Below are positions 43,274-64,000 of a stretch of DNA of 64,000 bases, one piece after another. Below the pieces are notes generated by a model that searched no databases, had not been told where the DNA came from, and saw only the letters and a program-made list of their open reading frames with translations. The stretch is from Escherichia phage vB_EcoP_EcoN5: the sequence record MN715356. One strand, written 5' to 3'. Made by a program: the position numbers and the translations under genes. Numbering within the stretch: the first letter of the stretch is position 1; each line of letters starts with the position of its first letter.

Positions 43274-43352
43274 TTTCTAATCCACCTGAAGGGTAAACCC
43301 TTTCATCTAATTAACCTTTAAATTGTGCCCCTTTGTCAGAGGCACCCATTGA

Positions 43353-44456
43353 TTACAGCGCTTGCTCTAACTGATTTTCCAGATGATCTGGAATGTACCC
43401 TGTGATGTTGTTATCACTATGGCCTGACTCACGTAGTAAGTCAAAAATAGCACGGATACGTTGCTCTGGTGCAGATCGTACAGTAGATAGGTCAGTTGTA
43501 CGAAGCATAACCAGAATCTCTTGGTACAAGTTGTTAGCGTTCCCTCGGACATATCCAAGGAATCCGTAGAAGTCTGAGATATGACGTAGGTCAACAAGAA
43601 CTTCTCCGTTGGAGTTGGTTCGACGTAAACGAATACGACCAGACTGTTCTACTTCATGAGAACGACAATACAAAACATCACGGGCCATACAATAGCCTGA
43701 ATGCAAATCCGATTCATCCAGATTGTAATCCAGAGGAAGGTAAGGAAGCATTGGGGCAAATCGTACAGTATTTAAGTGCTCGATAAACTGATCATTGCTC
43801 ATATCTGCATTATCTAGAGCCAGCTTCTTCAACATCAAGAAGCGGTTAACCAGATTGAGAAGTTGACCACGTTTCCACTTAGGCTCACTGATACGGAACT
43901 CAATCGAACCGTATTGGGCAAGTGGCAGAAGATTCAGGGATGTATACTTATCCCATGAACGAACCAGACGGTTGAAGAACTCTTCGTCGTCGTAGTTAAA
44001 TGCGTCAGAGGCATTCATTACCTGTGCTTGTACCACTGCAAAAGCAGGGCAGAAGTTGCTACGGTAACGATGGTAGCCTGAACACTTGAACAACATCTTT
44101 TCATAGAAGGTCCAAGCGAGAATGGTTTTCTTGAGGATATTACTATCAGCATCCCTCATATCCATATGAACGTGAGTAGAGCAACGCCAAGTCCCCTCGG
44201 CGTGCGATTCAGCTACTGCTTCACTCAGGTTGTTGATAGCGTCTAACAACTCCTGTCCGTTGTAAGGCCGTGAACATACCATTTCACAACCATTACGCAG
44301 GGAACCATCCTCTGTACAATCCCACATATCTGCTTCGATATGATCGGAACCTTCTAGTTCAAGTTCAATACCGACACCGCACTGAAGTGCAATTGAACTA
44401 TGCGCCTCAGTTAAACGCCCTTCTCGATATCCAAAAGTTTGCGCTACAGTTGTCAT
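43353..44456 (-). CDS. glutamine-synthetase-like carboxylate-amine ligase (amidoligase)
   Basis: 'GVGIELELEG' and 'CSTHVHMD' resemble GCS2/amidoligase motifs. Confidence 0.5.
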   Translation of the reverse strand: MTTVAQTFGYREGRLTEAHSSIALQCGVGIELELEGSDHIEADMWDCTEDGSLRNGCEMVCSRPYNGQELLDAINNLSEAVAESHAEGTWRCSTHVHMDMRDADSNILKKTILAWTFYEKMLFKCSGYHRYRSNFCPAFAVVQAQVMNASDAFNYDDEEFFNRLVRSWDKYTSLNLLPLAQYGSIEFRISEPKWKRGQLLNLVNRFLMLKKLALDNADMSNDQFIEHLNTVRFAPMLPYLPLDYNLDESDLHSGYCMARDVLYCRSHEVEQSGRIRLRRTNSNGEVLVDLRHISDFYGFLGYVRGNANNLYQEILVMLRTTDLSTVRSAPEQRIRAIFDLLRESGHSDNNITGYIPDHLENQLEQAL

Positions 44457-45070
44457 AACGAATCCACCAACGTAATATTGTAATTGCTAAGGTTTTCAGA
44501 AATGTGATGAAAGTGTTCCAGAAGTCGCATCGGTTGCTGACCGTAAGAGTCACGAGGTGCTTCCAGATCTACTTGTCCTACCAGTGCACCTTTATAATGC
44601 ACCTTACCATCCGTAGGGTTGATATAAATATAACGAGTAACCAATCCTTCGAATTCAGGATTGAATAGACTGTAAACCATCTCCCCGGAGATAGCACGAC
44701 CAACACCCGGAGCGTTGCGAATCTTGTTACCCATCAAACCCTTTGCTCTCTGGCGAACAGGGTTAATATGAGTCCAGCTTACAGTGTTACCGTTATGGAA
44801 CAGATAACCAACGTCAGGTGATTCAAGAATCAAGGTTGGGTCGAACACTGGAACATTCATCGTAGTGTTTCGAAGATTCCCTTGCTCATTCTTGTACCAC
44901 TGCTCTACAACAAAGTACAGAGCCTGTTCTGCTTCGTGAGAGAAGTCATCACTGCGGAAGTTACCACTCTGCTCAACACCAATCACAAAACATGGAAGGT
45001 TGATATTACCTGCTCGTTTAGCAATCCATGTACCATTATAGTAATGAGAAAAATCAGCTACTAAGCTCAC
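44453..45070 (-). CDS. hypothetical protein within amidoligase cluster
   Basis: 205-aa ORF with 4-nt overlaps to both neighbours. Confidence 0.4.
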   Translation of the reverse strand: MSLVADFSHYYNGTWIAKRAGNINLPCFVIGVEQSGNFRSDDFSHEAEQALYFVVEQWYKNEQGNLRNTTMNVPVFDPTLILESPDVGYLFHNGNTVSWTHINPVRQRAKGLMGNKIRNAPGVGRAISGEMVYSLFNPEFEGLVTRYIYINPTDGKVHYKGALVGQVDLEAPRDSYGQQPMRLLEHFHHISENLSNYNITLVDSL

Positions 45071-45079
45071 GATAACCTC

Positions 45080-45886
45080 TTATGCTACCTGAAGGAGTTT
45101 GATCTGCTGGTCCGCTTCTTTAACGTTGTTGCCGTTAATGATTTCATGAAGCTTCTCAATCGGAAGGCGAGAGTGCAATGCCATCAGAGTGGACATATCA
45201 CACTGCTGGACAACCTTGTCAACTTGATCGTAAACAAACTTACGGTTTTCACGATCGCTAATCCAGAAGTTAGACAGTGAACGGTATTCGATACCGTAGT
45301 CTTTATAACGGATTGCAGATGCTTTGCCATAGAGTTCTTTACGGCGAGTATCTTTGTCCATAATAACTGCTGGAAGTGACAGGAAGTAATCACACAGCAC
45401 GCCCAACATCATCTGGGTTTGCAGAGTGATATCCAAAGCACCAACCACACCAAGATGTACGTGACCACCGGCAGTACGAAGCCCTTTATTCTGAGAAGTC
45501 GGGGATGGATTCTTCTGACCAGTGAAAGCGTTAAAATCAGGAGTGCATCCGAAGATGAACGCTGATTCATTGAAAGTCTTCATCTCTTCTTCAGTGAAGA
45601 TGTGAGAGCTAACACCCGGAGCTGTTTCCATGTCCAGTTTGTTCAGGACATTGTTGGTGAGATCGATACCACGTTGCATGTTATCGTTAAACGCTTCAAA
45701 GCCGCTCTGTGGGTCAATATCAAACTCAGCCAGTACGTTGTCCTCTTGAAGACGAACATCCTTAGCCAGAGTGATCTTATCGTCCTTAGAACAACCTAAC
45801 AGACCAGCTACAGAGGTGATGATACCGTTGCTGGTACGAACAAACATTTCAGGATCAGAGCCGATAAGGAATTTGCGCTTAGTCAT
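45080..45886 (-). CDS. second GS-like carboxylate-amine ligase-type protein
   Basis: 'LIGSDPEMFV' and 'AGGHVHLGV' motifs. Confidence 0.45.
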   Translation of the reverse strand: MTKRKFLIGSDPEMFVRTSNGIITSVAGLLGCSKDDKITLAKDVRLQEDNVLAEFDIDPQSGFEAFNDNMQRGIDLTNNVLNKLDMETAPGVSSHIFTEEEMKTFNESAFIFGCTPDFNAFTGQKNPSPTSQNKGLRTAGGHVHLGVVGALDITLQTQMMLGVLCDYFLSLPAVIMDKDTRRKELYGKASAIRYKDYGIEYRSLSNFWISDRENRKFVYDQVDKVVQQCDMSTLMALHSRLPIEKLHEIINGNNVKEADQQIKLLQVA

Positions 45887-46850
45887 TGTAATACTCCACT
45901 AGTTCAGAAAAGAGAGATGAGATTGTGTTACCAACTTCTTCAGTAGTAAGACCAGAGTTTGGTCCAGTACGTTGAATCAGTCGGGCTGTAAAGTTTTGGA
46001 CTGTAATGTTTTCCAACTTATTGTCTATTGCTTCACGTTTGTGACCATGACAGTTGGACCAGAGTCTTAACCACTCTGACATTGTTTCATACTCGTCCGG
46101 GTCTTGATCTTTAGCACGAGCAAATCTTCGTAAGGCATCTTGGTTATGGTTGCGAACATAACCGTCCTTGTTGTCACCAACACCGAAGGGGTTTTGAACC
46201 CATACCTGCTTCGTGTATTCATCAGAGTCTACAACCAAAGGAAGGAATGCTGCTGCTGACATATTGTTATTAACAACAATAGAGGTGCTCTCGCTACTCC
46301 CATTGACTCTTCCTCGTTGAGACCATCCACCGAAGAAGTCACGACCCAACCCAGCTAACACTAGAGCGATGCCGATGCGTTTACGCTTCAGCCACTCTTC
46401 CCTGTCTTCAATTCCTTCTGCTAGGAAATCCATTCCACGATACTGCCCTTCCAGGATGCTACGGAAGAGCATAAGTCCTGTGAAGATTTGATCTGCTGGA
46501 TGCTCACGGAGGTTGACAGCTACACTATTCGCTGAAGTGATTGTAAATACATCACGATAGCAAGACATAGAGTTCATAATATCTGCTGTTTCAACCAAGT
46601 TCTTTTCAATTTCAGATGCAACATGACCATGAAAAGAGTGAGTCCAGTAATTCAACATCTCCAATTGCAAGTTGATATCACGGTTGAAGCGTCTATAACG
46701 CCCATCTTCAGTGATAACTTCGCCATCAATATCATTTACGCATTGGCCTTGCATGTAGTTGTGAATACCGAAGCACCCACGACCTAAGAACTTCTGTTCC
46801 CCTAAATCCTGTTGAAGATTCAGAGGTACGATCGTTGTGGAGATTGACAT
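45879..46850 (-). CDS. hypothetical protein within amidoligase cluster
   Basis: 323-aa co-directional ORF. Confidence 0.4.
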   Translation of the reverse strand: MSISTTIVPLNLQQDLGEQKFLGRGCFGIHNYMQGQCVNDIDGEVITEDGRYRRFNRDINLQLEMLNYWTHSFHGHVASEIEKNLVETADIMNSMSCYRDVFTITSANSVAVNLREHPADQIFTGLMLFRSILEGQYRGMDFLAEGIEDREEWLKRKRIGIALVLAGLGRDFFGGWSQRGRVNGSSESTSIVVNNNMSAAAFLPLVVDSDEYTKQVWVQNPFGVGDNKDGYVRNHNQDALRRFARAKDQDPDEYETMSEWLRLWSNCHGHKREAIDNKLENITVQNFTARLIQRTGPNSGLTTEEVGNTISSLFSELVEYYND

Positions 46851-46860
46851 AACTAACCTT

Positions 46861-48057
46861 TTATTTTCCTAAAAATAATCCGCTCATGACACCATCCCAC
46901 TCAGAGGAAGGAATCACTGAATACTCCGAACTTTGGTCCAGAGTCCCACTACTAAATCGCTGAACAATGTTGTAGATGTTGAACAGGTCTTTAGTCTCGG
47001 CACGAATGCCGTAGATTAGCCTGTTAGCTGTTTTCTCATTTTTAGACACGCGACGGGTAAAGTTAACCAAAAGATTATCACCTTTAAGTATCTCTGACCC
47101 ATCTTTTACTAGATCGGGGTGCATCACTGGCAAGAACATTGAGTTGTTAACTCGTAATTCTGCTGTTTCATCATTCTCATAATGAATCCACTTAAAGTCT
47201 TCATCACGGAAATGACCACACCCATCTCTGTATGACTGTTGACGCCAAGGAACTTGAAATGCTTCAGAGTGTTTATCAGCCATGCCGACTGTAAACAGCG
47301 ACGCTGGGAAGATACAAGCATCCCAATCATTACCAACCAGAGTTGCTTTCGTTTCCCCTAAGAGGTTAGTGTAAGTGCTAACCATTCGTGAGTAAACGTA
47401 AGCCTGAAGAATTGTCCAGCCTTCAACCAACCATTTATGAAGGAAGGTTTCAACTTGACTCTCTTCATCTTCGCAATAGAAGGTTCTATCTAACATTAAA
47501 TAGAACAGACAACGATCAGCAGGAACATTCTCAGTTGCTACCCCCATAAAGCCTTTCTCGTGCCAGCGTAAACAGGAGGGACGATCTTTGTCCACAAATG
47601 CTTCCATAGCTTCCAGTACAGCACGAGGTGTGGTTCGATATTCAGGGTTTTTGTCGTTCCAACGATCAATGTTATTCTTAGGAGGTGTGTCTTCATCTTC
47701 ATACGAACACCAACTTAAAGCTTCAGCTACGTGCTTTTCATCACGCCAGCGTCTAAAACCTAACATCTTCATGTGAGTTCCGGAGTTCCAGATATGCTTG
47801 ATTTTACACATATCCATCTCTCGGCTTAACAGGAATTCTTCCCCATCAGCACTACGAACGTTAGCCTCTTCATGCCACACTCGAACGTGCATATTCCACC
47901 CATGAGTTGCCTCATACATGTTAGGGTCGAAGTATTCATCTTCGTCATCATCTTCATCAACGCCACCGTTATAGTTGCGAAGCTGAAGGAACCCATAACA
48001 AGGAGGGTTGACCGTTAAAACATTACCTTCAGTATCTTCTAATGTTACTGGAAACAT
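46861..48057 (-). CDS. hypothetical protein; first 54 codons lie inside the duplicated segment
   Basis: 398-aa ORF with acidic N-terminal 'DEDDDEDEY' stretch. Confidence 0.4.
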   Translation of the reverse strand: MFPVTLEDTEGNVLTVNPPCYGFLQLRNYNGGVDEDDDEDEYFDPNMYEATHGWNMHVRVWHEEANVRSADGEEFLLSREMDMCKIKHIWNSGTHMKMLGFRRWRDEKHVAEALSWCSYEDEDTPPKNNIDRWNDKNPEYRTTPRAVLEAMEAFVDKDRPSCLRWHEKGFMGVATENVPADRCLFYLMLDRTFYCEDEESQVETFLHKWLVEGWTILQAYVYSRMVSTYTNLLGETKATLVGNDWDACIFPASLFTVGMADKHSEAFQVPWRQQSYRDGCGHFRDEDFKWIHYENDETAELRVNNSMFLPVMHPDLVKDGSEILKGDNLLVNFTRRVSKNEKTANRLIYGIRAETKDLFNIYNIVQRFSSGTLDQSSEYSVIPSSEWDGVMSGLFLGK

Positions 48058-48068
48058 TATACCAACCT

Positions 48069-48431
48069 CTATTGGTTTTTAATCAACTCAATCGACTTAC
48101 GGATATAAAGAATATCTCGGAAGTTTCGATAGTTGTTCATAAATTGGTGCTTCTGGAAAGTAGCTTCTTCCAGAGCTTTCTTTGCTTCTGCGTAATTTTT
48201 ACGGGCAAGATGTACAACCCGCTCTGGTAACACATTTGCACGACGGATGATATACTTGTGAGCTTTCATGTTGCTTTGCTCACGAGCAATCTTACATTTA
48301 GCAACTTTGATACCATTTGCAATCCAAGCAAGTTCTTGCTCAAGCTCATCGTTGGACATTCCACCGAGATTTGATGCAACCTTGTTCAGAGTTTCAATAT
48401 TAACGTTGCCCTTAATGGGACGTGTATTCAT
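48069..48431 (-). CDS. hypothetical protein (copy 1)
   Basis: 120-aa ORF, basic, helical; duplicated at 49587-49949. Confidence 0.4.
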   Translation of the reverse strand: MNTRPIKGNVNIETLNKVASNLGGMSNDELEQELAWIANGIKVAKCKIAREQSNMKAHKYIIRRANVLPERVVHLARKNYAEAKKALEEATFQKHQFMNNYRNFRDILYIRKSIELIKNQ

Positions 48432-48433
48432 AC

Positions 48434-48586
48434 TTACTCCTGTTGTTTACACTCGTCAATAACCCACTGATAAGTGGATTGCCCAGAAAAGAAACACTGA
48501 ATAAATCCAGATGTTCTCTGCGTTACCAGTGCTAGTGCACAAATCACTACCGCTGCTGCTAGCAGTTTTAAATCTAATTTAGACAT
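48434..48586 (-). CDS. small membrane / signal-peptide protein (copy 1)
   Basis: Hand-translated ~50-aa ORF 'MSKLDLKLLAAAVVICALALV...' with RBS GAGGAAAT; below track cutoff. Confidence 0.3.
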   Translation of the reverse strand: MSKLDLKLLAAAVVICALALVTQRTSGFIQCFFSGQSTYQWVIDECKQQE

Positions 48587-48823
48587 ATTTCCTCTCATTG
48601 AATTTAAAAAAGGACTCTCCGAAAAGAGCCAAGCTTTAAATCCAAAAAAAGATATTACCCAATATCTGTGGATAACCTGCTCTTAAAATATCTATCCGAC
48701 GGATGTTTGAGGAACACTCCTCTCCCTAGCATCGGCCCCATACGGGAAATATATTAAGATTAGGTTAGTTGAGTCAGAATAACTCACATAGCCCTCCGAG
48801 GAAGGCTATAGGTGTTACTACAA

Positions 48824-49039
48824 CTAAAAATCACCTGATTTTACAAAATCATCACTAAGAATTTCGTCAATCTCTTTGCTAGTCAAATCTTTCCTGAACC
48901 AGCAACAAGGTACATCCACCCATTGACCAGAGTTGTTTTCTACAGAGCATCTATTGCCTGTCTTACTCTTGCACTTATAGGTTTTACCTTTGTCTAGACG
49001 GTAGTGTATTCTGTAAACGATCGACACAAGTGTTATCAT
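48824..49039 (-). CDS. Cys-containing small protein (copy 1)
   Basis: 71-aa ORF with 'CKSKTGNRC...PCCW'. Confidence 0.35.
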   Translation of the reverse strand: MITLVSIVYRIHYRLDKGKTYKCKSKTGNRCSVENNSGQWVDVPCCWFRKDLTSKEIDEILSDDFVKSGDF

Positions 49040-49272
49040 TACTCGCCTTTCTTAGCACGATCTTTGGCAGTTTTGCCAGTGCGGATGCGATGGGAAACGT
49101 TAACCAGAGTGCCACCATCAACTACGGTAACGCTCTTGTTTTTAGCCAGATCGAACACAGTTTTCTCCGTGCCACCCAAGCGAATTTGCTTAGGCTCACT
49201 GAAGGTTTGGGTTGATTTAGATTGGAACTGAAACGGTTGACGGATTGCATCAATTGCACTTACTTTAGACAT
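49039..49272 (-). CDS. hypothetical protein (copy 1)
   Basis: 77-aa ORF preceded by hairpin and conserved motif. Confidence 0.4.
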   Translation of the reverse strand: MSKVSAIDAIRQPFQFQSKSTQTFSEPKQIRLGGTEKTVFDLAKNKSVTVVDGGTLVNVSHRIRTGKTAKDRAKKGE

Positions 49273-49586
49273 AGTGGAAATTCCTTAAAAAGTTATGGCT
49301 GCGTAGAGGGAATTCCCTACGCAAATTGGGCCGCCTAAAAAGAGGCGTCATAGTACTAAAAGGAGGAGAGAAGAGGGCTTATTTAGCTACCTTTTTCTGT
49401 CCGTTTACAAACCCCACCCATGAGTTGCCTCATACATGTTAGGGTCGAAGTATTCATCTTCGTCATCATCTTCATCAACGCCACCGTTATAGTTGCGAAG
49501 CTGAAGGAACCCATAACAAGGAGGGTTGACCGTTAAAACATTACCTTCAGTATCTTCTAATGTTACTGGAAACATTATACCAACCT

Positions 49587-49949
49587 CTATTGGTTTTTAA
49601 TCAACTCAATCGACTTACGGATATAAAGAATATCTCGGAAGTTTCGATAGTTGTTCATAAATTGGTGCTTCTGGAAAGTAGCTTCTTCCAGAGCTTTCTT
49701 TGCTTCTGCGTAATTTTTACGGGCAAGATGTACAACCCGCTCTGGTAACACATTTGCACGACGGATGATATACTTGTGAGCTTTCATGTTGCTTTGCTCA
49801 CGAGCAATCTTACATTTAGCAACTTTGATACCATTTGCAATCCAAGCAAGTTCTTGCTCAAGCTCATCGTTGGACATTCCACCGAGATTTGATGCAACCT
49901 TGTTCAGAGTTTCAATATTAACGTTGCCCTTAATGGGACGTGTATTCAT
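49587..49949 (-). CDS. hypothetical protein (copy 2, identical to 48069-48431)
   Basis: Identical translation. Confidence 0.4.
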   Translation of the reverse strand: MNTRPIKGNVNIETLNKVASNLGGMSNDELEQELAWIANGIKVAKCKIAREQSNMKAHKYIIRRANVLPERVVHLARKNYAEAKKALEEATFQKHQFMNNYRNFRDILYIRKSIELIKNQ

Positions 49950-50341
49950 ACTTACTCCTGTTGTTTACACTCGTCAATAACCCACTGATAAGTGGATTGC
50001 CCAGAAAAGAAACACTGAATAAATCCAGATGTTCTCTGCGTTACCAGTGCTAGTGCACAAATCACTACCGCTGCTGCTAGCAGTTTTAAATCTAATTTAG
50101 ACATATTTCCTCTCATTGAATTTAAAAAAGGACTCTCCGAAAAGAGCCAAGCTTTAAATCCAAAAAAAGATATTACCCAATATCTGTGGATAACCTGCTC
50201 TTAAAATATCTATCCGACGGATGTTTGAGGAACACTCCTCTCCCTAGCATCGGCCCCATACGGGAAATATATTAAGATTAGGTTAGTTGAGTCAGAATAA
50301 CTCACATAGCCCTCCGAGGAAGGCTATAGGTGTTACTACAA

Positions 50342-50557
50342 CTAAAAATCACCTGATTTTACAAAATCATCACTAAGAATTTCGTCAATCTCTTTGCTAG
50401 TCAAATCTTTCCTGAACCAGCAACAAGGTACATCCACCCATTGACCAGAGTTGTTTTCTACAGAGCATCTATTGCCTGTCTTACTCTTGCACTTATAGGT
50501 TTTACCTTTGTCTAGACGGTAGTGTATTCTGTAAACGATCGACACAAGTGTTATCAT
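50342..50557 (-). CDS. Cys-containing small protein (copy 2)
   Basis: Identical translation to 48824-49039. Confidence 0.35.
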   Translation of the reverse strand: MITLVSIVYRIHYRLDKGKTYKCKSKTGNRCSVENNSGQWVDVPCCWFRKDLTSKEIDEILSDDFVKSGDF

Positions 50558-50790
50558 TACTCGCCTTTCTTAGCACGATCTTTGGCAGTTTTGCCAGTGC
50601 GGATGCGATGGGAAACGTTAACCAGAGTGCCACCATCAACTACGGTAACGCTCTTGTTTTTAGCCAGATCGAACACAGTTTTCTCCGTGCCACCCAAGCG
50701 AATTTGCTTAGGCTCACTGAAGGTTTGGGTTGATTTAGATTGGAACTGAAACGGTTGACGGATTGCATCAATTGCACTTACTTTAGACAT
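50557..50790 (-). CDS. hypothetical protein (copy 2)
   Basis: Identical translation to 49039-49272. Confidence 0.4.
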   Translation of the reverse strand: MSKVSAIDAIRQPFQFQSKSTQTFSEPKQIRLGGTEKTVFDLAKNKSVTVVDGGTLVNVSHRIRTGKTAKDRAKKGE

Positions 50791-51021
50791 AGTGGAAATT
50801 CCTTAAAAAGTTATGGCTGCGTAGAGGGAATTCCCTACGCAAATTGGGCCGCCTAAAAAGAGGCGTCATAGTACTAAAAGGAGGAGAGAAGAGGGCTTAT
50901 TTAGCTACCTTTTTCTGTCCGTTTACAAACCAGATAATCGAACCGTCAGGCTGTCGTTGACCGAAGCCTTTTTGGTTAATCATATCGTCATAAGAATATG
51001 CTTTACGTCTCATTTGTTTTC

Positions 51022-51270
51022 CTACGAAGTTAGGATGATTTCAGCCTTAATAAACTTCTCACCAACAACCATGTCACCAGACACAGGACGAACCTCTCCA
51101 GTGCCTAGGTTAACAGCTCCAGCAGGTTGACAACCCATGCTCTTAGTTGTCAGCATGTAAATCTTTTGAAGATGGCACTCTTGGAGAGTGAACACATCTG
51201 ACATATTTAGATCTTTAACACGGAGGACTGTTTCCTCTTTGCTCTTAACTTTAATATGAATAGTGCTCAT
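51022..51270 (-). CDS. small protein, GDVF/VNLxTG paralog family
   Basis: 'SDVF' and 'GAVNLGTGEV' shared with six other small ORFs. Confidence 0.4.
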   Translation of the reverse strand: MSTIHIKVKSKEETVLRVKDLNMSDVFTLQECHLQKIYMLTTKSMGCQPAGAVNLGTGEVRPVSGDMVVGEKFIKAEIILTS

Positions 51271-51272
51271 GA

Positions 51273-51518
51273 TTACTCCTGAACCACTGACATACGAATC
51301 ATTTCCACCGGAGTGTCACCTTTCATAACACCCAGCACACCAGTCAGAAGATTGACTGTAGTAATCCAACCCTCTTCTACAGAGATCTTGTTGGACACGT
51401 TATTAACACGCATGTAATACTGAGGTGATGCTGTACCTCGCTGAACTACGAAAGGGTTTCCGGGGATGATAGTATCCAGCGGATGTGTGGTATCTTTAAC
51501 CTTGGGGATAATTTTCAT
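51273..51518 (-). CDS. small protein, GDVF/VNLxTG paralog family
   Basis: Track ORF 51273-51560 trimmed to Met 'MKIIPKV'; 'TTVNLLTGVLG'. Confidence 0.35.
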   Translation of the reverse strand: MKIIPKVKDTTHPLDTIIPGNPFVVQRGTASPQYYMRVNNVSNKISVEEGWITTVNLLTGVLGVMKGDTPVEMIRMSVVQE

Positions 51519-51519
51519 A

Positions 51520-51750
51520 TTATTTACCCTGAATAATAAGTTTGGATTCGAACAGCTCAACAGTATTGGTCAGAGGAACTGGAAAGAAAATATCTTTAGA
51601 GTTCCGAACACCCATTGCAGAGTGATCCCCTGTTTTTATCCAAAATTTAGCGATTACGTCGTTACCAGTAAAACGGAAAACATCTCCATTCTCTAAGTCA
51701 GAGAAAGTCTTGGAGGGTGCTTTGCTTTTTGGTACTAGCTCAAAGTTCAT
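51520..51750 (-). CDS. small protein, GDVF/VNLxTG paralog family
   Basis: 'ENGDVFRF...FWIKTGD'. Confidence 0.4.
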   Translation of the reverse strand: MNFELVPKSKAPSKTFSDLENGDVFRFTGNDVIAKFWIKTGDHSAMGVRNSKDIFFPVPLTNTVELFESKLIIQGK

Positions 51751-51758
51751 CTTGATTC

Positions 51759-52070
51759 CTATTTAAGTTTGAGGCTAATGTTAAGGTGCATACATGCCCT
51801 GTTCTGTACAGCAGCATAACTCCTACCGAGCATGTCAGCCATTTTCTGAATAGACATGAACCCAGCATTACGGATAAGGAACTGGTCTTCTTCTTTAGAC
51901 CACTTGACTCGGATTGAAGCTCTTGATATTCCGAATTTAGTGCAAGCTGTATTAACTGCATTCTCCGTTACATTCATAATCTGAGCAACCTCTTGGACAG
52001 AGTACTCTTTGATTAGTCTCCGAAGATTTTCAATCTGCATCGGAGTCCATATAGTTCTTCGAGCTTTCAT
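51759..52070 (-). CDS. DNA-binding protein with duplicated helix-turn-helix
   Basis: Two HTH-like repeats 'YSVQEVAQIMNVTENAVNTA' and 'MSIQKMADMLGRSYAAVQNRA'. Confidence 0.45.
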   Translation of the reverse strand: MKARRTIWTPMQIENLRRLIKEYSVQEVAQIMNVTENAVNTACTKFGISRASIRVKWSKEEDQFLIRNAGFMSIQKMADMLGRSYAAVQNRACMHLNISLKLK

Positions 52071-52113
52071 ACATTCTCCAATTAAACGTTTATATAAGAC
52101 TTGCTTAGATAAA

Positions 52114-52159
52114 GATTCAATAAAATAGGGGGAGGGGACGAATCCTCCCTTATCCTATT
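52114..52159 (-). terminator. rho-independent terminator (extended hairpin)
   Basis: AATAGG...GGAGG/CCTCC...CCTATT nested hairpin followed on the minus strand by TTTTATT. Confidence 0.4.
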
Positions 52160-52684
52160 AATTAATATTACATGTAAGATCTAACAATCGGATGCCTTTG
52201 TAGGAATAAGCATTATGCTAATCCAGCACTAAACTCCCGCCCCCTTAGTGGGCTGGGTTATTAAAGGGTAACGCCCTTATGGGCTAGTTACGTGAATGTT
52301 AGTTTGATAGGAGATCTGAAGTCCTATCTCAAAGGACTCTCGTAAGAATCCTTCACGATATTACTTATTCATCTCTCGTCGGCTATCTCTCCAAGCCAAC
52401 CAAGTGTAGATTTTCAACTCTTCTAAACTTTCTGGAGTGAATAGGTATTCTTTGAAGGTGTCACTAAACCACTCTAAAAATTCTTCAGTCATAATAACCT
52501 CTTAGCAAGACTGATCACATGGCTGATCACCACATGTCTTACAGATCACTGGAGAGTAACTACAGGCAGGATACACTGACACACCATCCCATGTCTCACA
52601 CCCACAGTCAGGACATGTGCCGTTAGATTCCATGTCATCATCGTCGTCTATTTCACCGCCACCAAAACAACTCATACAGGCTCC

Positions 52685-52906
52685 TTAGTAAACTAAACCT
52701 ATAGCCTTTGCATCGGGCTGAGGGACTACCTTTGCGCTAGGGCGATAGCCATCCACTGAACCATTCCAAAGGTTGACACAGGTAATATACCCATCGTCTA
52801 TGATGTCTGTTTTAATCCAGAAGTGTTTATCATGACCAAAGATACTTCCGTTTGGCAGCGTGGACAGCTCAACGGTTTTAAGTGACTGCTTAGAGTCTAG
52901 TTTCAT
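52685..52906 (-). CDS. small protein, GDVF/VNLxTG paralog family
   Basis: 'PNGSIFGHDKHFWIKTDI...CVNLWNGSV'. Confidence 0.4.
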   Translation of the reverse strand: MKLDSKQSLKTVELSTLPNGSIFGHDKHFWIKTDIIDDGYITCVNLWNGSVDGYRPSAKVVPQPDAKAIGLVY

Positions 52907-52915
52907 ATAAGTTCC

Positions 52916-53113
52916 TTAATATACCAAACCATGTAAAAGAAACACCCTCTTTGTAAGCTCTGCTTTAGCTCTGTAATAGGCCTTAGAACCTAACAGGCGG
53001 CTCTTAACAAAGAACTTGATGTCATTGCTAACATCTTGTATTAAACGCTCCTGCACAGCTTCTGAGGAGCTATTAATCGAATCAATTAACACCTTTGTAG
53101 ATGTGTAATTCAT
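52916..53113 (-). CDS. hypothetical protein
   Basis: 65-aa co-directional ORF. Confidence 0.35.
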   Translation of the reverse strand: MNYTSTKVLIDSINSSSEAVQERLIQDVSNDIKFFVKSRLLGSKAYYRAKAELTKRVFLLHGLVY

Positions 53114-53114
53114 A

Positions 53115-53414
53115 TTACCACTCCTTACCGGTTGTTGTTACAGAACCGCCACACCACAACGCTGTATCGATCACAACATTGTCTGGCGTAGACTTCTCTT
53201 CATTGATAGAAGGGTTAGCATTAGAGCAGGTTGCTCCGTTCCAGCGCATATCAATTTCACCAGAAGGAACCTTCTCACCTTTATGCCAGCGAGATACACA
53301 AATACCATCCACTGCTACTGCACACCATCCATCAGGACGGCTCTGTACGCAGCCTGTAAGGGCCACACAGACAAGGAAGATACAGATTAAGGATATTACA
53401 CCACCCCAACTCAT
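53115..53414 (-). CDS. lipoprotein (signal peptide with lipobox LTGC)
   Basis: 'MSWGGVISLICIFLVCVALTGC' then Cys-rich mature part. Confidence 0.5.
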   Translation of the reverse strand: MSWGGVISLICIFLVCVALTGCVQSRPDGWCAVAVDGICVSRWHKGEKVPSGEIDMRWNGATCSNANPSINEEKSTPDNVVIDTALWCGGSVTTTGKEW

Positions 53415-53433
53415 AACTACCTCCTACGTTGAT

Positions 53434-53509
53434 TGGTGCACCCTACAGGACTCGAACCTGTAACCAACGACTTAGAAGGTCGCTGCTCTGTCCATTGAGC
53501 TAAGGGTGC
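53434..53509 (-). tRNA. tRNA-Arg (anticodon UCU)
   Basis: 76-nt cloverleaf: acceptor GCACCCT/AGGGTGC, D-stem GCTC/GAGC, anticodon stem GCGAC/GTCGT with loop CTTCTAA, T-arm ACAGG-TTCGAGT-CCTGT, encoded CCA. Confidence 0.85.
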
Positions 53510-53518
53510 TAGATTTGT

Positions 53519-53728
53519 TTAACTAAAGATACGAATGGCTACATCGTGACCGATATGACCGGGAACTTTATGCTGTTCTATTTTCAAACAGCGTTTACAG
53601 ATACGAGATACACGAGATTCTTTTCTCTCGATTGGAGTGTCTTTAGCGTGAGTAATGTGAAGGTTCTCAGTGACTACCCACTCATGTTTACATCCAGAAT
53701 CTTCGGGCTTTTTCTTACGAAAGAACAT
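53519..53728 (-). CDS. small zinc-ribbon protein (tandem paralog 1 of 3)
   Basis: Track ORF 53519-53770 trimmed to Met after RBS AAGGGG; 'CKHEW...CKRC'. Confidence 0.35.
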   Translation of the reverse strand: MFFRKKKPEDSGCKHEWVVTENLHITHAKDTPIERKESRVSRICKRCLKIEQHKVPGHIGHDVAIRIFS

Positions 53729-53736
53729 AACACCCC

Positions 53737-53908
53737 TTAGATCAGATCTGTTTTCTTGTGCAGACCACATATTTTACAGCGGGAATAGATACGCAACCCT
53801 TGTCGCTCTCTTTCTGTAAGTTTATTTGTGATCGTCAGCTCATAAGTAGAAAGATCTTCCCACTCATGGAAATGAAATAGACGTTTGAACCATTTAATCA
53901 TAATGATT
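53737..53908 (-). CDS. small zinc-ribbon protein (tandem paralog 2 of 3)
   Basis: Hand-translated 'MIKWFKRLFHFHEW...CKICG'; below track cutoff. Confidence 0.3.
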
Positions 53909-53910
53909 CC

Positions 53911-54072
53911 TTAGATTACATCACGATGACTAACATCACCACACACCTTACACTGGATAATGTAACGTGTGCCCTTGTCATTGTTCCCATCTGAATCTGT
54001 ATAGACCAGAGGACGGGTGTTAATAATCTTCCAATCATGACAATGGAAGACACGCTTTAGCCACTTGAACAT
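53911..54072 (-). CDS. small zinc-ribbon protein (tandem paralog 3 of 3)
   Basis: Internal Met of track ORF 53911-54246: 'MFKWLKRVFHCHDW...CKVCG'. Confidence 0.35.
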   Translation of the reverse strand: MFKWLKRVFHCHDWKIINTRPLVYTDSDGNNDKGTRYIIQCKVCGDVSHRDVI

Positions 54073-54079
54073 ATTAACC

Positions 54080-54331
54080 TCAAGCACAAGCAGGGAGAGT
54101 GATGATTTTATACTGACCTTCGAACTCTCCAAATAAACCCAAGAATGTAGGACTGTAAGTACCAGTACAAACAAACTCGTCAAACAATTCGTTATAGCTA
54201 GGCTTAATCTTCCAAGCCCATACATAACCCATCTTGTCAATTGCAATGTAACGGGTGTTCAGAGGAACAGTCATCATCACATCATCAACTTCGATCACTT
54301 TAGTGATTGGTGCAGCTTGGAAGTTTTTCAT
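54080..54331 (-). CDS. hypothetical protein
   Basis: 83-aa co-directional ORF. Confidence 0.4.
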   Translation of the reverse strand: MKNFQAAPITKVIEVDDVMMTVPLNTRYIAIDKMGYVWAWKIKPSYNELFDEFVCTGTYSPTFLGLFGEFEGQYKIITLPACA

Positions 54332-54496
54332 ACTTTACCTTTGATAAAAATGTCATTACCACAGACACAGCATGAACGAACAACAGTAGCGCCACGCTGA
54401 ACGATACGAACCTCTTCCTTAACCAGATTAACACGAGCACCACAGCAAGGAGAGTTAACATAAGAGTAACCAGCTTGCGTATGTTTGATTGTTTGC

Positions 54497-54853
54497 TTAG
54501 ACATTTGATTCGAGATCTCTTAGTTGTTCAGCCAATTGTTCGCATTCATTAACGCAGAACTCTTCTGTTCTTGGTATCCCATTAGGGTTGAACCGTGTCT
54601 TATCACCTGCATGGGCACAATCAAATCCGACTGTATTTAAACCACCCATTTCTTCGAGAGAGTCCTGCCACGTAACACCGCCATGGACGTTGACATAACA
54701 AACCTCTTTCTCGTCCCCATTATATCCAGTGAAGTTTTTACTGCTCAGAGTGTCTGGCAACTCCACATACCCACAAAAGTGGGAGTCATTCATGTGCATA
54801 ATCACAGCACGAAGACCCGATTTAGTTTCCCAACTTTTAACTATGCGTCTCAT
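54497..54853 (-). CDS. hypothetical protein
   Basis: Track ORF 54497-55006 trimmed to Met preceded by AGAGGTG; upstream part would span a terminator. Confidence 0.4.
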   Translation of the reverse strand: MRRIVKSWETKSGLRAVIMHMNDSHFCGYVELPDTLSSKNFTGYNGDEKEVCYVNVHGGVTWQDSLEEMGGLNTVGFDCAHAGDKTRFNPNGIPRTEEFCVNECEQLAEQLRDLESNV

Positions 54854-54895
54854 ATAAGCACCTCTTGTTAGTTTAAGTAAGAGTTGTCCCTTAAT

Positions 54896-54930
54896 TAAAA
54901 CAACAAAGGCCACCCGATTGGGCAGCCTTT
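54896..54930 (-). terminator. rho-independent terminator
   Basis: AGGCTGCCC-AATC-GGGTGGCCT hairpin followed on the minus strand by TTGTTGTTTT. Confidence 0.45.
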
Positions 54931-55434
54931 CTCTATTAACTGTTATATGTCCAATTACCTTGCTTGTTACGGATGGCTGACATTGCATGAATCCAGAAGC
55001 TTTCAAGTTTCAGAGCACCGTTAGCTACTGCATCCATACGTTCAGGGCGGTTCATACGTTTGGTTGATACTTTCATACCTATCTCTCTTTGTTAGTGGAG
55101 GCATTATTGCCAGTTGATATAAGGGATAGCCCTAGTCAGTAGACTAATTCTGACCGCGTACTCATTGCCGACCTTCTCTGCCTAAGAGTTCAGGTTCTAG
55201 AGCTATCTCTTATTCCAACTGGTGAAGACCTCCTACCCCTAGGAGATCTCCCGAATCCCAAACCAATACGTACCCCTACGTAGTGGGAAGTCTACCGAAA
55301 TTGAACAGGTTTTAGTCTAACACCGGATGTTCGAGCAAGCTCTCCCTAGCGGTGCGGCATATGCCTGATTGATGTAGTTAATGAGGAACACCCTCACATA
55401 GCCCTCTGATAAATACAAGGGCTATAAGTCGGTG

Positions 55435-55653
55435 TTACTTTTGAGTCAAACACAAATCAGGACGGGGCATAACAGTGGTTGACAGATTGAACACACCAAT
55501 GTAGCCAGTTCTCAGATTAGCTGCCTGACGCAAACCATCAGGAGTCTTATCCTCTAGCATCAGCCAGAAGCATTTATCGTAAGAGAAAACATCACCACCC
55601 TTAACATCTTCTGCATTTGCATATTTAGGATAATCAACTACTTTAATTTCCAT
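55435..55653 (-). CDS. small protein, GDVF/VNLxTG paralog family
   Basis: 'KGGDVFSYDKCFWLMLEDK...ANLRTGYIGV'. Confidence 0.4.
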   Translation of the reverse strand: MEIKVVDYPKYANAEDVKGGDVFSYDKCFWLMLEDKTPDGLRQAANLRTGYIGVFNLSTTVMPRPDLCLTQK

Positions 55654-55923
55654 CTACTTGCCCTTGTTAGTAATAACAACATCATGAAGAAGAACAACCT
55701 TGCTTTTCGAGCTAAGCTTAAGGACTTGCTTATTTGTCAGACTAAGGACGACACAACCCCCATCAGAATGCTTGGTCTCTTCAATCTGTGAGGTAAATAG
55801 CTGAACAACCATGTAGAAATCTGCTCGTGTTTCCCTGATTTGGAATACATCTCCAAGTTTGAGATCACCAACACACAAAGATGGTTCATTTACCTTTAAA
55901 TCAATCTTCATCTTTAGCCTCAA
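55654..55923 (-). CDS. small protein, GDVF/VNLxTG paralog family
   Basis: 'LKLGDVFQIRETRADFYMVV'. Confidence 0.4.
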   Translation of the reverse strand: MRLKMKIDLKVNEPSLCVGDLKLGDVFQIRETRADFYMVVQLFTSQIEETKHSDGGCVVLSLTNKQVLKLSSKSKVVLLHDVVITNKGK

Positions 55924-56134
55924 TGTTAGTTATGTGGAGATCACTGCGTACTTGGCAGATCTCATCTCGGTTGATGCCGGTCAGTGTTCCGGATACCACA
56001 TTAACACATTTAACATGATAGTCAGATGTGGAATCTGTTCTGATATAAAGAATGCCTCGGAAAGAAAACAAAACTCCAGGCTTCATGTTAGTTAAGCGAA
56101 TCGTTGTATGATCATGCTTAATATTAACTTTCAC
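55901..56134 (-). CDS. small protein, GDVF/VNLxTG paralog family
   Basis: 'KPGVLFSFRGILYIRTD...CVNVVSGTLTG'. Confidence 0.4.
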   Translation of the reverse strand: MKVNIKHDHTTIRLTNMKPGVLFSFRGILYIRTDSTSDYHVKCVNVVSGTLTGINRDEICQVRSDLHITNIEAKDED

Positions 56135-56136
56135 TG

Positions 56137-56418
56137 TTAATCCACCTTATTGGTAAGACGAACGTTATCAATCACCTGCACATTGATATCACTCTTAAGT
56201 ATAGTAACCCTGTCTGATACTATATCTAATACAGCTTTCCAACTTCCTGCTGAACCATACATCATAAGATTGCTTGAATCCAGCTTAACAACCAAATAGA
56301 TCTTCTTTTTAGGTGGGATAGTTTCAAAAACATCACCAACCTTCAACTCTTTAAGTTGTTTAACCACTGGAACTGTATTGATATCATGCTTCACTGTTAA
56401 TCTCCTGCTGTTTAGCAA
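56137..56418 (-). CDS. small protein, GDVF/VNLxTG paralog family
   Basis: 'LKVGDVFETIPPKKKIYLVVKLD'. Confidence 0.4.
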   Translation of the reverse strand: MLNSRRLTVKHDINTVPVVKQLKELKVGDVFETIPPKKKIYLVVKLDSSNLMMYGSAGSWKAVLDIVSDRVTILKSDINVQVIDNVRLTNKVD

Positions 56419-56879: not shown

Positions 56880-57269
56880 TTATTCCCTAGAGCTATTATC
56901 GAACACTAAATCACCACAATACATAGGATTGGCATACCATTTTGGCACCCCTTCGCTCTTACTCTGAAAGTAAGTCCCACTATACAGCGGAACATAATTC
57001 TTCTTAAGGGCACGTTTAGCCAGCCGCTCGCTTTCTCCAATGGCTTGCTTAGTCATCGGATTTTTATCACGAATCAGCTTTACATAACGTTTATAAGGTT
57101 TCTCCTGTTTTAATAGTACCGGAATCCACTCAAACTGGTTCTTTTGTCTTATCACCTGTTCAGCGGTCAGTTTTCGTTGGGCCATTCTATTTATCACGGT
57201 ATCCGCAACTAAAGCCTTACATGCGGTTGGCTGATTCCCTGCCTCATAATAAATAGTCAATGTCAACAT
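56880..57269 (-). CDS. SleB-like cell-wall hydrolase domain protein
   Basis: 'IYYEAGNQPTACKALVADTVINRM...QFEW' resembles the SleB/Hydrolase_2 core. Confidence 0.5.
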   Translation of the reverse strand: MLTLTIYYEAGNQPTACKALVADTVINRMAQRKLTAEQVIRQKNQFEWIPVLLKQEKPYKRYVKLIRDKNPMTKQAIGESERLAKRALKKNYVPLYSGTYFQSKSEGVPKWYANPMYCGDLVFDNSSRE

Positions 57270-63150: not shown

Positions 63151-63179
63151 ATTATAGGTCAGGCTTTTCGGTTGTCAAT
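63151..63179 (-). promoter_or_regulatory. consensus sigma70 promoter (TTGACA-17 bp-TATAAT)
   Basis: On minus strand: perfect TTGACA, 17-bp spacer, perfect TATAAT, A-tract UP-like element upstream. Confidence 0.6.
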
Positions 63180-64000
63180 ACTCTTTTTAAGAATATTTTC
63201 ACTTTCTAGCCTGATTTTTAAAGAGCGGGGCAAGTTTCCTTGCCTTGTATGTTTTACATCGTACCCGATAGAAATGAGTATACGCCAATCAGTTGGGGAT
63301 GCAATAGGGTAAAGCAAAATATTTTAAACTTTTTCACTATGGGAAGGTAAAAGAGCGGGCGAACGTGATACATCATAGAAAACGGCTTGTAAAGCCATAA
63401 TAAGCGGCCTAAAACGCACTATAGCGAGCTAAAAGGGAGTAAGGAATACAATCACCTTAGAAAAGAAAAAAGCCCCATAAGGAAAGCAAGTACAACGCTA
63501 GCGCTACGGGTAGCAGACCAACATACCAAGACAAACGGGCAACATACAACCGCAGAATAGACCACGGGGAAACATGCCAGATAGTGCGGTAATAATATAC
63601 CACTTAAATAATTAGTTAACTATTAATAGCATTACTCAAACATCAAACGTTAAAAGAAAAAGAATAAAAGAACGCTGAAAAAAGAAAGAATAAAAAGAAT
63701 ATAATAACTGTTAATTACTATCATCCACTTAATTAATACATATATCATTATTACACTCATAATCATTACTATTGAAACTATTTACATTCAAACTGTGGGG
63801 AGCTGTGACTGTTACATGACGGTATTATTATCATGGTTATGAATGTGCCTATACTAGTTTATACAGTGCTGGCCTTTCTCCTACTCTTTAAAGGGGAACT
63901 AAATAAACGGGTAGGTAATGTAATAGATGACATATACGGGGAAAGAATAACGGGGAGTAGGCACGGGGAAAGGTGGAACGTTGAAAGGGAAGGTAAAGGC

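Follow-up and report, generated by a model that had tools for sequence, protein, structure and literature searches.

A Family of Small Paralogous Proteins, Probably β-Barrels, Encoded in the Putative Early Region of a phiEco32-like Escherichia Phage

Genomic Context

Between positions 51,022 and 56,418 of a 64,000-nucleotide stretch of Escherichia phage vB_EcoP_EcoN5 DNA (MN715356; the whole stretch is referred to below as the window), eight short ORFs were described by a first-pass annotation as a single family of paralogs, and were interpreted as diversifying host-takeover or anti-defence effectors of an early region. This raises the question of whether the eight ORFs are truly related, which fold their products share and what such a set of small proteins may do during infection.

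The source phage is phiEco32-like (Kuravirus). The early cluster of such phages is read leftward from σ70 promoters at the right genome end (PMC8948821, PMC4281155, PMC9965538), and the phiEco32 relatives of the eight genes fall in the experimentally defined early class (PMC8948821). A promoter scan predicted a minus-strand σ70 promoter at 63151..63178 (TTGACA-16-TATAAT, 12/12), which heads the leftward cluster and lies where the early promoters of phiEco32 and SU10 have been reported (PMC8948821, PMC4281155), as well as a second consensus σ70 promoter on the same strand at 62556-62528. Thus, both the literature and the consensus promoters place the locus in the cluster classed as early in phiEco32-like phages. 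By analogy, the eight genes would be expressed early in this phage too, and the cluster that includes them would be read as one long leftward transcript by the host σ70 RNA polymerase.

Homology of the Eight Proteins

The relationship of the eight proteins was assessed with leave-one-out HMMs. Each model built from seven members ranks the eighth first of 469 window ORFs (E 7e-10 to 1.2e-4), with the runner-up ORF at E 0.05 or worse. The real sequences score 18.6–30.1 bits versus at most 11.3 bits for the best of 500 composition-preserving shuffles (z = 6.9–18). Pairwise phmmer comparisons link the products of 52685, 55435 and 55901 at E ~1e-8, and those of 55654 and 56137 at 5e-8. PHROG cross-hits join seven of the eight members, and the PHROG of the remaining one (51022) is also matched by 35 sequences of a 135-sequence alignment comprising the eight window genes and 127 representatives. 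The profile made from this alignment, which includes the eight, finds them among the window ORFs at E 3e-21 to 3e-10. The leave-one-out models, the shuffles and the PHROG cross-hits bear out the homology proposed at first: the eight ORFs are true paralogues, very likely with one small fold in common.

Pairwise identities of just 16–25% might suggest that the similarity is merely compositional or that the ORFs are not genes. The probability of such a reading is negligible, given that every ORF matches a PHROG, that the structure models are confident, and that similarity of composition alone is ruled out by the leave-one-out E values, the shuffle z-scores and dN/dS values below 1.

Gene Layout and Start Codons

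All eight ORFs were found on the minus strand where they had been listed. They are arranged in groups of three, one and four, and not in the two tandem arrays originally reported: three abutting genes (51022-51750), a lone gene (52685-52906) and four abutting or overlapping genes (55435-56394). The protein lengths, given before as 72–95 aa, become 72–85 aa after the trimming of three start codons. The TTG codons listed as starts at 51560, 55923 and 56418 probably lie upstream of the real ones; ATG 51518, ATG 55911 and GTG 56394 are favoured by PHROG matches, the annotation of relatives and Shine–Dalgarno motifs. Each family gene has its own Shine–Dalgarno motif.

The first minus-strand group begins with 51022..51270 (82 aa), an orthologue of phiEco32 gp95 (PHROG 12612 at 3.4e-39; leave-one-out E 3.6e-8; shuffle z = 11.9), which carries the motifs SDVF, IYMLT and AVNLGTGEV and whose ATG is preceded by the Shine–Dalgarno sequence caggag. 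The gp96 orthologue (PHROG 7431; leave-one-out E 4.8e-7; z = 10.2) occupies 51273..51518 and has 81 aa when read from ATG 51518; its TTG start at 51560 is probably spurious, as the PHROG match covers residues 15–95 of the long ORF and genes of 246 nt are annotated in relatives. The gp98 orthologue at 51520..51750 (76 aa; PHROG 10911), which retains GDVF and FWIKT and has no VNLxTG turn, is the most divergent of the eight (leave-one-out E 5.4e-5; z = 6.9; cross-hit to PHROG 6570 at 1.6e-5). The minus-strand singleton at 52685..52906 (73 aa), orthologous to gp104 (PHROG 6570), is the best conserved.

The last group, also on the minus strand, includes the gp113 orthologue at 55435..55653 (72 aa; PHROG 6570 at 7.2e-29; phmmer match to 52685 at 9.5e-9; leave-one-out E 1.2e-4; z = 7.6) and the gp114 orthologue at 55654..55911, which has 85 aa from ATG 55911, a start supported by a Shine–Dalgarno motif. 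The latter matches PHROG 9955 at 2.1e-36 over residues 5–89, has a long insertion between β2 and β3 and shares 11 nt with the gene upstream (phmmer match to 56137 at 4.8e-8; leave-one-out E 8.9e-8). The gp115 orthologue at 55901..56134 (77 aa, GTG start, Shine–Dalgarno sequence aaggtgga; leave-one-out E 1.8e-9) matches PHROG 16423 at 1.3e-33 and gives cross-hits to PHROGs 6570, 7431 and 7832. The eighth gene, 56137..56394, encodes 85 aa from GTG 56394, preceded by caggaga, and is a paralogue of the gp114 orthologue (PHROG 9955 at 1.7e-8; leave-one-out E 3.9e-8; z = 18); it belongs to orthogroup OG6, with orthologues in Bas90, SGF2 and Paul and none in phiEco32.

Motifs and Predicted Fold

The sequence features noticed initially were largely recovered. 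All eight members have the aromatic strand (F/Y/W-Y/W/I-hydrophobic-K/R-T), and a VNLxTG-like turn, described as frequent, was found in five, being degenerate in 55654 and 56137 and missing only from the gp98 orthologue. The G(D)VF motif held in the relaxed form G-x-x-F, seen in seven members (51022 has S for G), but exact GDVF occurs in just four. The motif set of the wider family, named here after N4 gp21 and phiEco32 gp104, runs from L-x-x-G-[DE]-[VIC]-F through an aromatic Y/W-[MIL]-K-T strand and a V-N-L-x-[TN]-G turn to a V about 11 residues further on, and the eight proteins were assigned to the family by this set.

Conservation across the family is confined to the scaffold positions Gly20 (98%), Phe23 (99%), Tyr30 (75%), Val44 (80%), Leu46 (87%), Gly49 (91%) and Val60 (87%). 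The β3–β4 and β4–β5 spacings are constant (sd below 0.2), and the β2–β3 segment varies from 8 to 38 residues (sd 4.3). Structure prediction, proposed earlier as a check, was carried out for two members, and AlphaFold returned all-β models for both 52685 (pLDDT 88.5, five strands) and 51520 (pLDDT 78.3). The two models have overlapping structure matches in BFVD and correspond to a five-stranded SH3-like barrel. Consequently, the members of the family can with high confidence be predicted to be free-standing domains of some 75 residues that fold as a small five-stranded β-barrel of the SH3/Tudor/KOW-like type.

Distribution in Phages

An HMM search showed that the family extends far beyond this phage, comprising at least 387 clusters at 50% identity (E up to 1e-3). 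The matches are mostly full-length in proteins of 68–82 aa, with some two- and three-domain fusions. They include N4 gp21 (E 2.5e-16), LUZ24 gp7 (6.5e-9), PaP3 ORF65 (1.3e-8), four proteins of Salmonella phage 7-11 (gp110, gp112, gp131 and gp133; E 6e-14 to 6e-6) and nine proteins of phiEco32 (gp95, gp96, gp97, gp98, gp104, gp109, gp113, gp114 and gp115); N4 gp21 and PaP3 ORF65 were also matched on predicted structure. Local clusters of the family recur in several phages that are unrelated to one another; groups of three or four members were found in two contigs, one of them temperate and siphovirus-like and the other a phage contig of 130 kb. In N4, the gp21 gene is located downstream of those for RNAP II and is probably outside the vRNAP-transcribed early class, and early expression may therefore not hold for the whole family.

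The family is spread over nine or more PHROGs without assigned function, including 6570, 7832, 7431, 8365, 16423, 9955, 12612 and 10911, and has no Pfam or NCBIfam entry. No literature on the family was found, and the word 'paralog' was not found in the kuravirus literature checked for it. In public records, family members or their neighbours are mislabelled as 'DNA helicase' or 'endolysin'. Defining the family corrects such annotations even if the proteins prove unimportant.

Divergence and Selection

The family orthologues have a median identity of 82% to phiEco32 versus 97% for 32 neighbouring genes (one-sided Mann–Whitney p = 0.003). Seven Gordonclarkvirinae carry between 3 and 10 copies, with at least 15 orthogroups and with slot replacement. 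The family was originally called diversifying, and indeed its divergence and copy-number variation exceed those of its neighbours, but gene-wide dN/dS is 0.12–0.46 and gives no sign of positive selection. Since dN/dS is below 1 and dS is saturated in the most divergent pairs, the variety looks as if long-established alleles had been exchanged under purifying selection, and not as if positive selection had acted rapidly in place. Some positive selection might be anticipated in an effector engaged in an arms race. Moreover, the orthologue of 52685 is at least 90% identical in 54 of the 70 records carrying the gene, and a housekeeping role fits this near-invariance better than an arms race does.

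The same data bear on the suggestion that these are mostly dispensable passengers, small ORFs which duplicate in permissive early regions and have little or no role in infection. Differences in presence and copy number among close relatives would be expected of passengers, and none of the family's proteins was detected in the lysate proteome of SU10 (PMC4281155). LUZ24 gp7 also had no phenotype: when 13 early proteins, gp7 included, were produced in P. aeruginosa PAO1, four inhibited growth and gp7 was not one of them, nor did it have any effect in the biofilm inhibition test (PMC4635203). However, the dN/dS values indicate selection on the protein sequence, the ORFs are intact and preceded by Shine–Dalgarno motifs in all genomes examined, the family persists in very distant phage groups, and one of its genes is nearly invariant in most records. 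It is unlikely that the proteins are mere passengers.

Possible Function

The behaviour of LUZ24 gp7 speaks against a host shut-off toxin, although this protein is a single distant homologue and was tested in a different host. The lack of family members in the SU10 lysate proteome speaks against a structural role (PMC4281155). As only the barrel-building residues are conserved, and the β2–β3 hairpin and the surface vary freely, the proteins appear to be small binding modules, presumably non-enzymatic. Overall, the best explanation, to which we give about an even chance, is that the eight belong to a widespread family of small-barrel paralogues acting as binding modules. The mechanism itself is put forward more tentatively, at somewhat less than even probability. 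Each paralogue would dock on its own target, a macromolecule of the host or of the phage and more probably a protein than DNA or RNA, and would modulate or neutralise it early in infection for the purposes of host takeover or counter-defence, and the repertoire would be renewed via tandem duplication and allele exchange among related phages.

Small barrels of the KOW, Sm, cold-shock and Sso7d types bind nucleic acids, and the paralogues might similarly tune early transcription, translation or RNA stability. This appears improbable in view of the acidity of the family, with a median pI of 5.1 across the 135 aligned sequences and 64% of them below 6 (5.2–9.3 for the window members). In addition, the conserved residues are those of the core and form no conserved basic or aromatic surface, and the proteins have no KOW, S1, CSD or Sm match in Pfam even at E up to 1.

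The anti-defence role specifically, as suggested in the first-pass annotation, is rather doubtful. Searches of Pfam, NCBIfam, PADLOC and PDB sequences revealed no link to defence or anti-defence. The reported resistance of Gordonclarkvirinae to restriction-modification systems without a known inhibitor is circumstantial evidence in favour of the binding modules (PMC11990801). One form of such a role would be that of ligand sponges or decoys, oligomeric barrels sequestering a host-defence signalling molecule like the known small phage sponges. In favour of this reading, the proteins are small, presumably non-enzymatic and probably early, the relative tested, LUZ24 gp7, is non-toxic, the natural tandem fusions of two and three domains hint at oligomeric action, and kuraviruses broadly resist the defence systems tested (PMC11990801). 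But sponges need a conserved pocket, and polar conservation is limited here to turn and scaffold positions; a single ligand hardly explains why a genome should carry eight to ten divergent paralogues, and no sequence match was found to any Pfam family, the known sponge families included. Sponges are thus very unlikely.

A stronger form of the binding-module reading, to which only a low probability is assigned, is a phage-specific binder scaffold in which a fixed SH3-like barrel presents a hypervariable β2–β3 hairpin, so that each paralogue neutralises a different host defence or factor. Such a scaffold may have been amplified by tandem duplication and allele exchange to 3–10 copies in Gordonclarkvirinae and to 3–4 copies in unrelated phages. 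A conserved barrel, a variable hairpin and repeated local amplification are the pattern expected of specificity-diversified binders. If this is true, many tailed phages, N4, LUZ24 and phiEco32 among them, would share a general class of modular proteins for counter-defence or host takeover that has so far gone without a name. Viewing the proteins as one scaffold also makes them a defined, tractable set to screen for interactions and anti-defence activity, the eight of the window being small and easily expressed.

Comparison with Known Systems

Outside the family, the nearest comparisons are the SH3-like domains of KOW/EF-P domain I, the ribosomal L2 C-terminal domain, Tudor, DtxR and FeoA, from which the window proteins differ in standing alone, with no partner domain. 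There is no Pfam match for the eight at E up to 1, nor for the 135 aligned members at up to 0.01, and neither an aromatic cage nor the KOW glycine-lysine signature was identified. The proteins could not, therefore, be assigned to KOW (PF00467) or the EF-P N-terminal domain, which are defined by a Pfam match and the glycine-rich KOW signature, or to the Pfam families of Tudor and SH3, the former of which also calls for the cage. The Tudor-like binders of RNA polymerase, namely CarD-RID and the C-terminal domains of UvrD and PcrA, were compared as well, and the proteins could not be assigned to CarD_TRCF_RID or the UvrD/PcrA C-terminal Tudor group, which are defined by a sequence match and by binding to the RNAP β subunit.

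The eight proteins do belong to the family of N4 gp21 and phiEco32 gp104, which they match significantly by profile over the full length of proteins of about 70–85 aa. N4 gp21, LUZ24 gp7, PaP3 ORF65 and the genes of phage 7-11 are alike in size and motifs, but occur in single or few copies, in contrast to the arrays of eight to ten. The closest systems are phiEco32 and other Gordonclarkvirinae (among them SU10, SGF2, Bas90 and Paul), where orthologues and paralogues, all annotated as hypothetical, occupy the same genome positions. Compared with phiEco32, the window proteins have amino acid identities of 58–94%, homologues of gp97 and gp109 are absent, and the gene at 56137-56394 is an additional member.

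Arrangement of the Genes and Homology of the Eight Proteins

All eight ORFs listed in the first-pass annotation were found on the minus strand within the window. They had been described as two tandem arrays, but three groups are present instead: 51022-51750 holds three genes that abut one another, 52685-52906 a gene standing alone, and 55435-56418 (the extent of the ORFs as listed) four genes that abut or overlap. The intergenic spacing, from a gap of 1-2 nt to an overlap of 11 nt, is what a polycistronic unit would be expected to show. Three ORFs had been listed with upstream TTG codons, which are probably not the true starts. The profile matches of these ORFs to phage protein families (PHROGs) start at residues 15, 5 and 10, shorter versions of the genes are annotated in relatives, and Shine-Dalgarno-like motifs lie upstream of ATG 51518, ATG 55911 and GTG 56394. 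With the revised starts, the proposed length range of 72-95 aa gives way to 82, 81, 76, 73, 72, 85, 77 and 85 aa.

A plain alignment of the eight proteins reveals only 16-25% identity and one invariant phenylalanine and, because it is so weak, three tests of homology were applied. Pairwise phmmer comparison yielded one tight subgroup comprising 52685, 55435 and 55901 (members are named by left coordinate; E ~1e-8) and another comprising 55654 and 56137 (E 5e-8). When HMMs built from seven members were run against every window ORF of 35 aa or more (469 in total), the omitted member was the top match every time, with E values of 7e-10 to 1.2e-4, and no unrelated ORF had an E value below 0.05. 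As a composition control, the residues of each left-out sequence were shuffled 500 times; the real sequences scored 18.6-30.1 bits versus at most 11.3 bits for the best shuffle (z = 6.9-18). The explanation named at the outset as fatal to the family, a purely compositional similarity, is eliminated by these three tests, and the probability that composition or an artefact accounts for the resemblance is negligible.

The PHROG matches provide independent support for homology. Each member matches its own PHROG at E of 7e-29 or lower, except 56137, which matches PHROG 9955 at 1.7e-8, and cross-matches connect seven of the eight members. PHROG 12612, the family of 51022, is also matched by 35 of the 135 sequences in the family alignment, which combines the window genes with 127 representatives. 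The family HMM detected no members beyond the eight among the window ORFs.

Predicted Fold and Conserved Residues

Structure prediction, one of the checks suggested in the first pass, was carried out for 52685 and 51520 and points to one small all-beta fold. The AlphaFold2 model of the 52685 protein, built on the 135-sequence family alignment, has a mean pLDDT of 88.5; its five strands span residues 22-25, 28-37, 40-45, 51-54 and 59-62. The most divergent member, 51520, is devoid of the VNLxTG turn and was also modelled as all-beta (pLDDT 78.3). Matches common to both models in BFVD, the collection of predicted viral structures, include proteins of Morganella MP2, Proteus 3H10_20, SU7, LAMP, ECBP2 and ZC08. 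It is highly likely that the eight genes form a true paralogue family and that their products are stand-alone SH3-like barrels. No match was obtained in Pfam (searched to E 1 with the eight genes and to E 0.01 with the 135 members), nor in NCBIfam, PADLOC or PDB chains searched by sequence profile. The fold class is thus known, but no curated family takes in these proteins.

The well-conserved positions among the 135 sequences are the N-terminal M-K-I, hydrophobic residues 14 and 17, G20 (98%), D21, V22, F23 (99%), Y30, M/I31, K32, T33, A/C43, V44, N45, L46, G49 (91%), F54, V60 and L68. As these positions occupy the cores of strands and the tight turns in the 52685 model, they look like scaffold residues. 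The alignment contains no conserved polar set hinting at a catalytic or ligand site. The proteins might be thought to act as a ligand sponge, but a conserved pocket is absent, and such a role is very improbable. The spacings between strands 3 and 4 and strands 4 and 5 are nearly constant (sd below 0.2 residue), and the β2-β3 hairpin comprises anything between 8 and 38 residues (sd 4.3). It is precisely at this hairpin that the long members 55654 and 56137 depart from the short ones.

Distribution of the Family among Phages

The database search proposed earlier was fruitful: a profile of the eight proteins, compared with 1.84 billion cluster representatives at E up to 1e-3, found 387 clusters, nearly all matched over their full length and consisting of proteins of 68-82 aa. 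Several cluster members are natural tandem fusions of two or three domains. With the 135-member profile, phiEco32 yielded nine members (gp95-98, 104, 113, 114 and 115, plus the weakly matching gp109), Salmonella phage 7-11 yielded four, and coliphage N4 a strong one (gp21, E 2.5e-16); none turned up in the first 22 kb of G7C. LUZ24 gp7 and PaP3 ORF65 represent the family in Pseudomonas bruynogheviruses. A Foldseek search against predicted viral structures extended the list to uncharacterised proteins of Proteus, Klebsiella, Erwinia, Yersinia, Vibrio, Serratia and other phages. A second profile search for named matches added few, the look-up of family clusters returned no informative names, and a single-protein scan of bacterial genomes gave no family match.

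Metagenomic contigs also carry the family. Three members stand in tandem in a temperate siphovirus-like element with an integrase and a CI-like repressor, four lie inside 3 kb of a 130-kb phage that encodes a CHAP endolysin, and one was found in a T4-like contig; each time the members sit within runs of small unannotated genes. A tblastn search of phage records with one metagenomic member (P0136) found no match. The occurrence of member clusters in such different backgrounds indicates that local multiplication recurs within the family and is not confined to phage EcoN5.

Several GenBank and UniProt records label members or their neighbours as 'DNA helicase' or 'endolysin' (for example, EcoN5 protein P0004; phi32_116; IMEP8 gp111, L014 5407-5640). 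The proteins concerned are of about 80-100 aa and contain no helicase or endolysin domains; the labels look like propagated mis-annotations. Besides, the bruynogheviruses PaP3 and LUZ24 and the phiEco32-like phages have in common a block of genes encoding an amidoligase, a COOH-NH2 ligase, a glutamine amidotransferase, a RimK-like ligase and a gamma-glutamyl cyclotransferase (compared with window 40000-48000). This block adjoins small early genes, including a family member, in both groups.

Evolution within Kuraviruses

Copies were counted at the same three genome positions in seven Gordonclarkvirinae, and their number ranges from 3 to 10: three in Bas87, seven in IMEP8, eight each in the window, SGF2 and Paul, nine in phiEco32 and ten in Bas90. 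At a threshold of 45% identity, these members fall into at least 15 orthogroups. Family orthologues of the window and phiEco32 share a median amino acid identity of 82% (58-94%) versus 97% for 32 other genes at 40-62 kb (one-sided Mann-Whitney p = 0.003). The gene-wide dN/dS values of family pairs (Nei-Gojobori) are 0.12-0.46, which indicates that the genes are under purifying selection; dS is at least 1 or saturated in the most divergent pairs. The possibility that the genes are largely dispensable passengers is disfavoured by these ratios and by deep conservation, and it seems quite unlikely. The variety looks like the product of old alleles shuffled by recombination, together with gain and loss, rather than of rapid in situ positive selection. 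Member 52685 hardly varies: 54 of the 70 phage records carrying its orthologue show at least 90% identity.

The slot beside an HTH regulator is filled by alternative genes in different phages. The gene at 51759-52070 (minus strand), directly upstream of the first array in the direction of transcription, has relatives named 'D5-like transcriptional regulator' and gives hits to models of sigma70 region 4 and HTH domains (E 2.2e-7). Its identity is 98% with the Bas90 gene and only 62% with that of phiEco32, which makes it a swapped allele as well.

Probable Early Region and Neighbouring Genes

As found by megablast, the window is ~90% identical to ~77-kb podoviruses of Escherichia and Shigella (SGF2, 1-6bf, Bas90, Bas91 and KBNP1711), and comparison with G7C, N4 and phiEco32 identified it as phiEco32-like (Kuravirus, Gordonclarkvirinae). 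Two papers describe the right-hand gene cluster of phiEco32 as an experimentally defined early class, transcribed leftward by the host sigma70 holoenzyme from promoters at the cluster start (PMC8948821, PMC12276001). The corresponding blocks are CDS 69-125 in SU10 (PMC4281155) and gp82-122 in YF01, 'most hypothetical' (PMC9965538). The family genes of the window are counterparts of phiEco32 gp95, 96, 98, 104, 113, 114 and 115. A promoter scan, in which the total count of promoter-like sites was not above that in shuffled sequence, placed minus-strand sigma70 consensus promoters at 63178-63151 (12/12) and 62556-62528 (11/12); strong hairpins resembling terminators come after them, at 60692-60665 and 59279-59260. 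Both promoters stand where the leftward gene cluster starts, in a layout that agrees with the published early promoters of phiEco32 and SU10. The predicted assignment of the genes to an early region is thus supported by homology to the phiEco32 early cluster and by the predicted promoters.

Immediately downstream of the first array, the window contains an exact tandem duplication of 1518 bp (47896-49413 and 49414-50931, 100% identical). The repeat includes homologues of phiEco32 gp89, 90, 91 and 93 and the first 162 nt of a gp88 homologue. The unit is single-copy in phiEco32 and Bas90, and related records cover only ~93% of the stretch; the repeat is an artefact of assembly or else a duplication of very recent date. 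Genome termini were rejected as an explanation, related records ending near window position 64000. Between 52685 and the second array lie a Phage_lipoprotein family gene (53115-53414; PF24052, E 5.9e-35) and a minus-strand tRNA-Arg gene with anticodon TCT (53434-53509). Just downstream of the latter, in the direction of transcription, is a second, smaller set of paralogues on the minus strand (53519-53770, 53737-53901 and 53911-54075). These three small neighbouring ORFs have an H-x-W ... C-K-x-C motif in common, are 33-38% identical, and may be zinc-ribbon-like; none of them has a Pfam match. A 129-aa Hydrolase_2 protein (SleB-like cell-wall hydrolase, Pfam E 1.7e-7), 100% identical to phiEco32 gp117, is encoded at 56880-57269 (minus strand), just upstream of the second array in the direction of transcription. 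The early region is an unusual site for a cell-wall hydrolase.

Possible Function and Comparison with Known Systems

No literature was found on N4 gp21, phiEco32 gp104 (phi32_104) or PHROGs such as phrog_6570, and the kuravirus papers searched for the word 'paralog' do not use it. The only experimental datum found that ties to the family concerns LUZ24 gp7 (YP_001671880, 77 aa). When 13 early LUZ24 proteins, gp7 included, were each expressed from a single copy in P. aeruginosa PAO1, gp7 was not among the four that inhibited growth (PMC4635203). This means that at least one family member is not a host-killing shut-off protein. In a PEG-concentrated lysate of SU10, 34 proteins were detected, with no family member among them (PMC4281155), and this absence counts weakly against a virion role. 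Two candidate relatives were rejected. The small RNA polymerase regulator/inhibitor gp79 of phiEco32 has a published helical N-terminus, and the family HMM finds no extra window member; the RpoS binder gp70.1 of PaP3 is a protein of 131 aa encoded on the opposite strand and is not in the family.

As a tentative mechanism, which we consider conceivable rather than probable, the proteins would be produced early from host-polymerase transcripts and would act as non-enzymatic binding modules. Each paralogue would have its own macromolecular target, more likely a protein, which the variable hairpin and the adjacent surface would recognise, and host functions or defences would be modulated without cell killing. 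A role specifically in anti-defence, raised in the first-pass annotation, is rather unlikely. Gordonclarkvirinae are reported to resist restriction-modification systems with no inhibitor known (PMC11990801), which leaves space for unrecognised counter-defence genes but does not point at this family.

The window genes are orthologues of already sequenced 'hypothetical' genes of phiEco32, so they are not new sequences. No description was found of the phiEco32 genes, N4 gp21 and LUZ24 gp7 as one family, of this family as an SH3-like barrel with a hypervariable hairpin, or of its repeated amplification in clusters in unrelated phages. The small phage proteins of the DUF2829/Tad2 type bear a superficial resemblance to it, but no Pfam match supports a relationship. 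The pI profile, with a median of 5.1 family-wide and values of 5.2 to 9.3 in the window, is unlike that of typical nucleic-acid-binding small barrels. The fold class is common to the KOW, Tudor, SH3 and CarD-type families, but tests of membership by sequence failed for all of them. Judging by the predicted fold class and the outcome of these tests, it seems that the family is one of small early phage barrel proteins.
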